IMG/VR virus record: IMGVR_UViG_2541047960_000015
Strand: one strand, 5' to 3'
Source of the DNA: a virus
Lineage: Duplodnaviria; Heunggongvirae; Uroviricota; Caudoviricetes
Length of the DNA stretch: 3,085 bases
The translations under genes were made by a program, and so were the position numbers. Below, in pieces: positions 75 to 3,085 of the stretch. The first letter of the stretch is position 1, and each line of letters starts with the position of its first letter. The notes beneath the pieces are model-generated. The model worked only from the letters and a program-made list of their open reading frames with translations. It did not search any database and was not told the origin of the DNA.

Positions 75-1361
75 TTACCCAACTTTCTTATGGGGCATAC
101 ATGGGACACTTTCAGATAGTCTTTTGTTAAGGAGTTCTATCTGTTCGTGATTGTTGTCTTTCATCCATGCTCCGTAAACATTGAATACCATTTGTGCGTT
201 TGTGTGGCCCATCTGGCTTGCGATAAAACTAGGATTAGCTCCTGCGGCAAGTGACCAGCATGCATAAGTATGCCTGGATTGGTACGATTTTCTGTGTCTC
301 AGACCTGCGCGTTTTAAGATACTTGTCCATGACTCCCTGATGGAGTCAACCTTGTAGTGAGGTCCGGACAACTGCTGCTGTTTTGTTACCTGAGGACTAA
401 AAACAAAAGTGCATTTATGCACAGCAGTTCTCCCATATTCCCTCTGCTTCACCTCTACAGAATGTTGCTTTCCAAGCATGGTCATTTCCGCCTGGCTTTT
501 AAGAGCATCAATAGCTGGTTGAACCAGATGAATTGTCCTTCCGGTGCCTGCATCGGTTTTTGGTGGAGTGAATTCGCCAAGTTTTGTATAATTTCTACGG
601 ATGGTTATAGTCCTTGCTTTAAGGTCTATATCTTCCCATGCCAGCGATACCAACTCCCCGTGACGAATACCCGTGTATACAGCGAGAATCCACAGGTTTT
701 TTGTTTGTTGATGACGGCAAGCCTCAATAAAACGAATAAATTCGTCACGGGTGAGAGGATCTGGTTTTACCTTGGACTTTTTTAAGGGAGCCAGACCGTT
801 AAATGGGTTTCCTGAGGTATAACCATTATCTGTTGCAAATTGAAACATTCCAGCTATGGTTGTCATATAGTAGTTTACCGTGACCACTGAGCGCCCTTTT
901 ATGGAAGAAGTCTTTCCATTAGAAAGCTTTTGGTAACCGGTCAACAAATCTCTCCTTACGAAAAGTAAATCCTCTTTTGTTATGGATGAAACCAGTTTTT
1001 TTTCACCTAACATTGGTAACATGTTTTTAATTACTGACTGGTAACGGTTAAGTGCATTCGCACAAATCTCAATTTTCTTAAGGTCCAACCATTTTTCCGA
1101 AAGTGCCTTAACGGTTATCTCTCTTTTTCCCAGACCAAAGTGTTTCAGGTTAGGGGAATTAGGGAACTGCGCGGCGTAGTCGAAACTCCCCATTCTGATT
1201 GCAAAACAAACGGAAGTGCGAAGTTCACCAGCGATCTTCCGGTTTTTGGCTGTGTCAGGAACACCGAGGTTTTCTCTGACACGTTTGCCATTATAGTGAA
1301 ACCATATACGGAGTGATCCTCCATGGTTTTCAACGCCTGTCGGGTATGATGCGTTACTCAT
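75..1361 (-). CDS. int: Prophage integrase, tyrosine recombinase family (IntR/Rac-like; N-terminal arm-binding region plus C-terminal catalytic domain)
   Basis: Uninterrupted 428-aa ORF. ATG at 1359-1361 is preceded on the minus strand by GGGAGG (SD) with a 4-nt spacer; TAA stop at 75-77. The C-terminal part carries tyrosine-recombinase signature blocks: 'AVYTGIRHGEL' (box I Arg), 'SRHTYACW' (box II Arg-His) and 'GHTNAQMVFNVYGAW' (His plus candidate nucleophile Tyr). The N-terminus 'PTGVE..G..RIWF...GKR.RE' and overall layout match my recollection of E. coli Rac IntR and related lambdoid integrases. Not confirmed by search. Confidence 0.95.
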   Translation of the reverse strand: MSNASYPTGVENHGGSLRIWFHYNGKRVRENLGVPDTAKNRKIAGELRTSVCFAIRMGSFDYAAQFPNSPNLKHFGLGKREITVKALSEKWLDLKKIEICANALNRYQSVIKNMLPMLGEKKLVSSITKEDLLFVRRDLLTGYQKLSNGKTSSIKGRSVVTVNYYMTTIAGMFQFATDNGYTSGNPFNGLAPLKKSKVKPDPLTRDEFIRFIEACRHQQTKNLWILAVYTGIRHGELVSLAWEDIDLKARTITIRRNYTKLGEFTPPKTDAGTGRTIHLVQPAIDALKSQAEMTMLGKQHSVEVKQREYGRTAVHKCTFVFSPQVTKQQQLSGPHYKVDSIRESWTSILKRAGLRHRKSYQSRHTYACWSLAAGANPSFIASQMGHTNAQMVFNVYGAWMKDNNHEQIELLNKRLSESVPCMPHKKVG

Positions 1362-1805: not shown

Positions 1806-2048
1806 TTACTTCCTTTTTATGGCTCGTAATTTTTTCAGGTGCTTTTCCTGCTCAGTGTCCGCGAGAATTTTGCGGTACCCCTGGTGGTCAATATGTTCGA
1901 ACAGGCAGTTTAACTCACCAATGCGTACCCGCCCGGATCGTCCGTCCATCCGTCGAAAGAACACTGAGTGCTCAGTGATGCGAGTAATCACCACGGGGTA
2001 TCCAGCTCTGTCCGTGTATATCTGACCGCGTTGAATCAAAGCGAACAT
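1806..2048 (-). CDS. Small hypothetical lambdoid prophage protein (80 aa); possibly DUF4222-type small family (from memory, unverified)
   Basis: ORF-track entry 1806..2084 begins at a TTG with no RBS. The in-frame ATG at 2046-2048 is preceded by GGGGA (SD, 7-nt spacer), so I place the start there, giving MFALIQRGQIYTDRAGYPVVITRITEHSVFFRR.... Co-oriented with the operon; stop TAA 1806-1808 sits 3 nt from the next start. The 'G.IY.DR.G.PVVI.R......FFRR' pattern recalls a small conserved prophage family, but I cannot confirm it. Confidence 0.6.
   Translation of the reverse strand: MFALIQRGQIYTDRAGYPVVITRITEHSVFFRRMDGRSGRVRIGELNCLFEHIDHQGYRKILADTEQEKHLKKLRAIKRK
1809..1815 (-). promoter_or_regulatory. 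Shine-Dalgarno sequence (AAGGAAG) for the 44-aa ORF, embedded in the 3' end of the upstream gene
   Basis: Minus-strand sequence reads AAGGAAG-TAA-AGA-ATG: SD, then the stop codon of the upstream 80-aa ORF (1806-1808), one codon, then ATG at 1800-1802. This is a translational-coupling arrangement. Confidence 0.5.
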
Positions 2049-2132
2049 GTGGTTATCCCCATCGACAAATCGAGAACACAACAAACGCTGCTGCGAATAC
2101 CACCCCCAGAGTTACGATTGCATCAGGCCAGC

Positions 2133-2795
2133 TCATTGATTCACCTCCTGCCTGTCGTCCGGCATTCGCTCACTACAGCTTATCCAACCATCCGGAGTTA
2201 CCGGAGAGTTGCCCGATAGTGCATTCTGCTCCAGTGATGCTTTTACAAACCACGCTGCCTGAACTATAACGCCATGAATCCAGCGCAAATCAGCATCGCG
2301 ATCTTTCTTTTTCATCTTTTCGCCACTTAAGGCCTTGCTTATGTGGCTGCGTACCAGGTCTTCATGTAATTCCTTCGCCTCCTCAATGGTGAAACCACCA
2401 GGCAGAAGAGCCGGAGTTACCGGAGAGCTGGTTGACGCTTCCGGGATTTCCCGAAAATTATTGGTTGACGAATTCTTGCTTTCCCGAAAGTTTCCGGACT
2501 GAAGCATGGCGGTGCGGCAGGCGTTCCATATTTCGGCAGCAATATCGCGCTCGCTATCGGTTAATTTGTACGTGGAAACATAGCCAGAGAGCATTTCTAC
2601 GTTTTCCGGAGTTGCTTCTTCCGGCACTACCGGCGCTGGCAAGGCAGCGTGATAGTAGAGTGGCATAGTTTTGTACAGTGGTTCGCCAGGACTTCTGTCA
2701 ACCTGATTCCATTCTTCAACCCAGGCATCAACAACCGCTTTGCTGGTTGATACATGTTCTTCTGAATCTACATTTTGTCCTGATATACAGAACAT
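2133..2795 (-). CDS. Ea22-like / DUF551-like modular early-region prophage protein, 5' region disrupted by IS insertion (220 aa from first ATG; frame stays open up to the IS junction at 2869/2870)
   Basis: 220-aa ORF from ATG 2793-2795 (preceded by AGAGG, 5-nt spacer) to TGA 2133-2135. The same frame continues upstream without a stop through 2796-2869 (...LDIRDNIERRAYEIALASLEAEAV-M...) and only terminates inside the IS end, so the native N-terminus appears to be cut off or separated by the IS. The C-terminus 'SPVTPDGWISCSERMPDD' resembles the start of the DUF551 motif (W-I-x-x-x-E-R-L/M-P) seen in Ea22-like proteins, but the protein ends only 8 residues later. Family assignment is from memory. 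Confidence 0.7.
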   Translation of the reverse strand: MFCISGQNVDSEEHVSTSKAVVDAWVEEWNQVDRSPGEPLYKTMPLYYHAALPAPVVPEEATPENVEMLSGYVSTYKLTDSERDIAAEIWNACRTAMLQSGNFRESKNSSTNNFREIPEASTSSPVTPALLPGGFTIEEAKELHEDLVRSHISKALSGEKMKKKDRDADLRWIHGVIVQAAWFVKASLEQNALSGNSPVTPDGWISCSERMPDDRQEVNQ

Positions 2796-2869
2796 AACTG
2801 CCTCTGCTTCCAGCGATGCCAGAGCAATTTCATAAGCCCGACGCTCAATATTGTCTCGGATGTCCAGGC

Positions 2870-2894
2870 TGAACCGCCCCGGGAATCCTGGAGA
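2870..2894 (+). repeat. Putative left terminal inverted repeat (IRL) of the IS3-family element
   Basis: Terminal about 25 bp beginning TGAACCGCCCCGGG. Length is assumed from typical IS3-family IRs; the right IR is not in the window, so the extent cannot be verified by self-complementarity here. Confidence 0.5.
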
Positions 2895-2923
2895 CTAAAC
2901 TTCCTGAGAAAGAGGTAAACAGG

Positions 2924-3085
2924 ATGACTAAAAATACTCGTTTTTCCCCCGAAGTCCGTCAACGGGCAGTCCGTATGGTTCTGGAAAGTCAGAGCGAATA
3001 TGACTCACAATGGGCGACAATTTGTTCCATTGCTCCAAAGATTGGCTGTACGCCGGAGACTCTGCGTGTCTGGGTTCGCCAGCAT
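2924..3085 (+). CDS. IS3-family transposase OrfA, N-terminal 54 codons (helix-turn-helix region); truncated by the window edge
   Basis: ATG at 2924-2926 is preceded by AAGAGG (SD, about 8-nt spacer). Translation [54 protein letters not shown] is open to the window end. HTH-like segment '[18 protein letters not shown]'. Confidence 0.9.

Follow-up and report, generated by a model that had tools for sequence, protein, structure and literature searches.

A probable recent IS629 insertion in codon 20 of a lambdoid-prophage accessory gene of Escherichia coli

Prophage locus and inserted element

The DNA that we analyzed, a stretch of 3,085 nucleotides referred to here as the window, corresponds to the reversed sequence of positions 9711-12795 of locus L004, which is taken from scaffold KE702681.1 of the E. 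coli draft assembly GCA_000461795.1. The host prophage is lambdoid and lies next to mlrA (yehV), where Stx1 and related lambdoid prophages integrate. The genes are arranged in the order three Ead_Ea22 genes, a 41-aa ORF, the disrupted gene, a DUF4222 gene, a small ORF (44 aa), a DUF1233 (xis-like) gene, int, and mlrA. The disrupted gene belongs to the accessory genes of the int-proximal, early-left region and precedes xis and int. The 428-aa tyrosine integrase (window 75-1361), containing Arm-DNA-bind_2 and Phage_integrase domains, adjoins mlrA (L004 12757-13443). Directly upstream of the disrupted gene is the 41-aa hydrophobic ORF (MFNNLPGTGFFVVFGVICAVIGWAVIESILWLLSFIHITIG; L004 7020-7145), whose stop codon is located 10 nt before the native ATG of the gene; because that ATG is not preceded by a clear Shine-Dalgarno (SD) sequence, translational coupling between the two is possible.

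The first-pass annotation of this DNA had described a minus-strand reading frame that remains open for 25 more codons upstream of its first ATG and stops inside an IS, and inspection of the residual 220-codon ORF (2133..2795, minus strand) agreed with that description. The frame comprises 24 full codons (2796-2867) upstream of ATG 2795 and a 25th codon (2868-2870) that straddles the IS terminus at 2869/2870, after which it continues for 8 codons within the IS and ends at a TAG (2897..2895). A candidate SD sequence that had also been pointed out, AGAGG, was located on the minus strand at 2801..2805, 5 nt upstream of ATG 2795, and is recognized from sequence only. Approximately 25 open codons are expected by chance with a probability of (61/64)^25, or ∼0.3, and are not significant alone. 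Because a stop-free run of this length is not unusual (∼30%), the evidence for a disrupted gene comes from sequence comparisons.

The IS terminus, TGAACCGCCCC, starts at window 2870. From that position the window reads TGAACCGCCCCGGGAATCCTGGAGAC... and then enters a plus-strand ORF, orfA, which begins at ATG 2924 and is divergent from the truncated gene, as previously noted. The left end of the element (2870..3085, plus strand) opens at 2870 with the left inverted repeat, which is followed by a leader and orfA codons 1-54, and is cut by the contig end and a scaffold gap. Thousands of E. coli records contain elements annotated as 'IS3 family transposase, programmed frameshift' to which positions 2870-3085 were 100% identical. 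A complete reference copy (NZ_CP025917.1; L005 101-1410) is 1310 bp in length, encodes an orfA of 108 aa and an orfB of 296 aa, and carries an annotated programmed frameshift; it is 99.5% identical to elements of Stx phage records that are annotated as 'insertion sequence: IS3 family IS629'. When window 2870-3085 and the far end of the element (L004 7215-7453) were compared with this copy, 0 mismatches were observed; these two ends, the sequenced part of the IS in the source, amount to 455 of 1310 bp. The terminal inverted repeats are imperfect (TGAACCGCCCCGGGAATCCTGGAGA vs TGAACCGCCCCGGGTTTCCTGGAGA), with 23 of the first 25 positions matching and TG...CA ends. The 54-aa orfA fragment matched the NCBIfam IS3 transposase profile NF033516 weakly (E = 0.011) because the fragment is cut off. 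On the basis of these similarities, we identify the inserted element as IS629, a finer name than IS3-family.

Target duplication and uninterrupted alleles

Across the scaffold gap, the IS629 right end (L004 7215-7453) is directly preceded by ATGACCACTTTAACCGACAAAGAACTGATTAAAGAAATCAAAGAGCGTATAGGCAGCCT. Beyond this end we found an ATG and the gene's missing first 19 codons (ATGACC...GGCAGCCT) together with a second GCCT, and the flanks read ...GGCAGCCT[IS]GCCTGGACATC... The two copies of the target-site duplication occupy window 2866-2869 (AGGC on the plus strand, GCCT on the gene strand) and L004 7211-7214 (GCCT, beyond the other IS end). Deletion of the IS plus 4 bp, corresponding to one GCCT copy, generated an open frame of 263 codons (a 792-nt ORF), whereas deletion of the IS plus 2, 3, or 5 bp did not restore this frame. 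Because only the 4-bp removal restored the frame and matched the empty sites, the duplication is 4 bp. The 3-bp duplication previously suggested, GGC at 2867-2869, is ruled out since removal of 3 bp breaks the frame. In terms of the reconstructed gene, the 220-codon ORF represents codons 44-263 and starts at the internal Met44. The orphaned coding sequence between this ORF and the IS (2796..2869, minus strand) represents codons 21-43 and parts of codons 19-20; lacking a start codon, this segment can no longer be translated.

The reconstructed 263-aa protein is the same as an intact protein of other E. coli (P0001, e.g., EHV61232.1) that is encoded in 22 contigs, with 100% identity and coverage; the residual ORF product is identical to P0001 residues 44-263. 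Comparison of the 792-nt reconstruction with six uninterrupted loci (L007-L012) revealed 0 mismatches, and the orphaned segment is colinear with and identical to these loci. The P0001 loci share their neighboring genes, the protein, and all 792 nt with the present locus and differ from it in being uninterrupted. Among them, L008 is of the same prophage type at mlrA (yehV), with 3 mismatches in the 2.8 kb around the gene, and the reconstructed locus is colinear with it over ∼12.8 kb. L007 and L009-L012 are related prophages at another chromosomal site. At a chromosomal site other than mlrA, prophages with the intact allele encode another integrase, of 437 aa. Matches that covered 80% or more of window 2560-2869 were found in 157 complete E. 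coli genomes, with 98-99% identity in the best records, and in three more uninterrupted loci, L001, L002, and phage vB_EcoS-689R5 (L003), the homology passes window 2869 and extends 55 nt to a common ATG.

None of the 120 best homologs starts at the equivalent of ATG 2795 (MFCISGQ); their starts are located ∼43-66 residues upstream. The MFCISGQ sequence is present in 12 of these proteins, at positions 44-50. Most (102/120) begin with MTT or MIT, and the motif L(A/V)SLEA occurs within the first 90 residues in 113 of the 120. Similarly, PHROG profiles 5117, 3323, and 660 align from reconstructed residue 1. The first-pass annotation would have taken the gene to be intact, with the IS merely adjacent, if homologs began at ATG 2795 or if the sequence past the right end of the IS failed to continue the frame; the frame continues beyond the IS and the homologs start upstream, so neither was found. 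Because the reconstruction matches the intact loci and no homolog starts at ATG 2795, we regard the gene as split, in agreement with the earlier suggestion that the IS had landed inside a coding sequence.

We explain the locus by a simple transposition in the recent past, in which IS629 entered codon 20 of a lambdoid-prophage accessory gene of 263 codons, and assign this explanation a probability of about 0.95. The insertion duplicated 4 bp (GCCT on the gene strand) and cut the gene into two parts. That it was recent is suggested by the 0 substitutions in 792 nt relative to the intact alleles. The event is an ordinary instance of the known, well-documented behavior of IS629. In O157:H7 and other E. 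coli, the element likewise has imperfect inverted repeats with TG...CA ends, produces target duplications of 3-4 bp, and inserts in prophages; in four O157:H7 genomes, prophages or prophage-like elements contain 62% of the IS629 copies (PMC3271280). The reference copy in L005 is flanked by a 3-bp target duplication, ATA. Exact protein look-up of the 220-aa product located the disrupted allele in a single contig. Megablast of window 1900-3085 against 5,426 complete E. coli genomes yielded neither the junction nor the full mosaic allele, the IS insertion site was absent from the phage collection searched, and exact-match scans for the left junction gave no hits in species-representative genomes, IMG/VR viral contigs, or JGI metagenome contigs.

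Affiliation of the encoded protein

A Pfam search of the reconstructed protein identified DUF551 (PF04448) alone, in the last 16 residues; the score was 24.2 bits versus a cut-off of 22, with only 16 of the 68 profile positions (1-16) aligned. The NCBIfam search of the same protein returned nothing. The Ead_Ea22 (PF13935) profile gave no match at E ≤ 1, and BLASTP detected no similarity to lambda Ea22 (E = 6) or to the adjacent genuine Ead_Ea22 protein (E ∼0.1). On the basis of these three comparisons, the Ea22 family label was rejected. The earlier description of an IS3-family element in the 5' part of an Ea22-like gene therefore held for the element and its position, which we narrow to IS629 and codon 20, and lacked sequence support for the gene. 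Judged by the protein itself, 'Ea22-like' is valid only by genomic position and by some phage-record labels: like lambda Ea22, the gene is an accessory gene of the early-left region that precedes xis and int, and it stands beside three genuine Ead_Ea22 genes, and relatives of the window gene are labeled 'Ea22' in some phage records. A pro-lysogenic role has been reported for true Ea22 (PMC7093339), and this role cannot be transferred to the window protein.

The sequence comparisons point to a mosaic member of the DUF551 family that lacks the DUF551 core. In an alignment, the family shows an N-terminal module that varies and ends in IALASLEAE, then a segment that also varies, a central module that is invariant (PVVPEEATPENVEM...), and DUF551 at the C terminus. 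DUF551 prophage proteins such as P0083 (300 aa, 670 contigs) have the central module PVVPEEATPENVEM...NSPVTPDGWISCSERMP in common with the window allele, as well as an N-terminus of the MTT...IALASLEAE type, whereas the window allele is without ∼45 DUF551-core residues and its N-terminal module is another mosaic variant. At window 2133-2160 the allele ends ...SERMPDD-RQEVNQ*, and full-length relatives have ∼45 residues more between SERMP and PLPEPPQEVNQ. This in-frame loss of the DUF551 core is widespread, as in cluster P0020 with 401 member sequences. A mosaic boundary is present within the gene at window ∼2640. The yehV-site prophage of O55:H7 RM12579 and many others match window 1900-2640 with 100% identity, and in them the gene product is a 252-aa 'phage protein' whose N-terminal module differs; window 2641-2869 derives from another module family. 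A 20-nt direct repeat, CCGGAGTTACCGGAGAG(T/C)TG, at window 2192-2211 and 2411-2430 encodes two 'SPVTP' linkers, and because the relatives P0021 and P0034 have extra modules here, the repeat may serve module exchange. An imperfect tandem direct repeat (31 nt, 77% identity, spacing 33) at window 2429-2492 encodes the 'NFRESKNSSTNNFREIPEAS' segment.

Fate of the gene and other readings of the junction

On the 5' side of the insertion, the gene is reduced to a stub in which 19 native residues are followed by 13 residues derived from the IS right end, giving a 32-aa fusion peptide. The 3' remnant is without the N-terminal module, including (R)IALASLEAE, the most conserved N-terminal motif of the family, and its sole available start is the internal Met44 (ATG 2795) with its moderate AGAGG SD. 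Consensus scans of the window part of the IS and of a full IS629 copy identified no promoter-like site facing the remnant. The only terminator-like feature found in the IS by such scans was one weak hairpin in the right inverted repeat, and this count is no higher than chance. Transcription of the remnant would need antisense read-through of the IS from the phage early-left promoter; antitermination by N could carry such a transcript across the element, and the SD of the internal ATG would be usable. Because the N-terminal module is lost, no promoter-like site was found facing the remnant, and transcription could occur by IS read-through alone, the gene is most likely inactivated. Polarity on the downstream same-strand DUF4222 gene, the 44-aa ORF, the DUF1233 xis-like gene, and int is possible. 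If the IS is polar on early-left transcription, expression of xis and int upon induction could drop, which could help to lock the prophage in place. For annotation, the 220-aa ORF should not be taken for an intact protein: it is the 3' fragment of a gene disrupted by the IS, and the 32-aa ORF across the IS is the 5' stub of that gene. The case has little importance beyond annotation; it adds to the examples in which IS629 erodes accessory genes of prophages, a process documented as a driver of E. coli genome diversification (PMC3271280).

Expression of the 220-aa remnant from Met44, as an N-terminally truncated protein that retains or acquires a function, is improbable. The in-frame ATG, the 5-nt spacing of AGAGG, the retained central module (PVVPEEATPENVEM...), and the lack of substitutions since the insertion are in keeping with such a function, but zero substitutions fits a recent event equally well as selection, the remnant has lost the N-terminal module of nearly all relatives and has no promoter-like site in the IS directed toward it, and the allele was seen in a single contig. 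The IS interior is represented by a run of 2255 N (L004 7454-9708), whereas a single 1310-bp IS629 would leave 855 bp; the assembled gap thus exceeds the need of one copy. The gap estimate may be wrong, or the insert may be larger, with nested or tandem IS elements. In either case, the matching duplications and the exactly contiguous flanks argue for one insertion event. We consider it quite unlikely that the insert is ∼2.7 kb (a tandem IS629 dimer, or IS629 with a nested IS or passenger DNA), that a Met44-initiated 220-aa remnant is functional and expressed upon prophage induction, or both.

The long gap, together with the multicopy nature of IS629 in E. coli (median of 3 places per genome having any), would also suit a junction created by an IS-mediated rearrangement, such as a deletion or inversion between two IS629 copies, or by a scaffolding misjoin. 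This origin is very unlikely, however, given that the same 4-bp GCCT is found on both flanks, that the empty site is recovered exactly when the two are joined, and that the reconstructed locus retains its ∼12.8-kb colinearity with L008; matching duplications and contiguous flanks are not normally left by rearrangement between separate copies. Finally, the comparisons refute the reading in which the gene is intact from ATG 2795, with the IS merely located in intergenic DNA ahead of it and a frame that is open by chance: this reading accommodates the ∼30% chance expectation for the stop-free run and the AGAGG SD of ATG 2795, but the intact alleles contain the 74 nt upstream, without a difference, as coding sequence, no homolog (0/120) starts at the Met44 equivalent, and the missing ATG and 19 codons lie directly beyond the other IS end.
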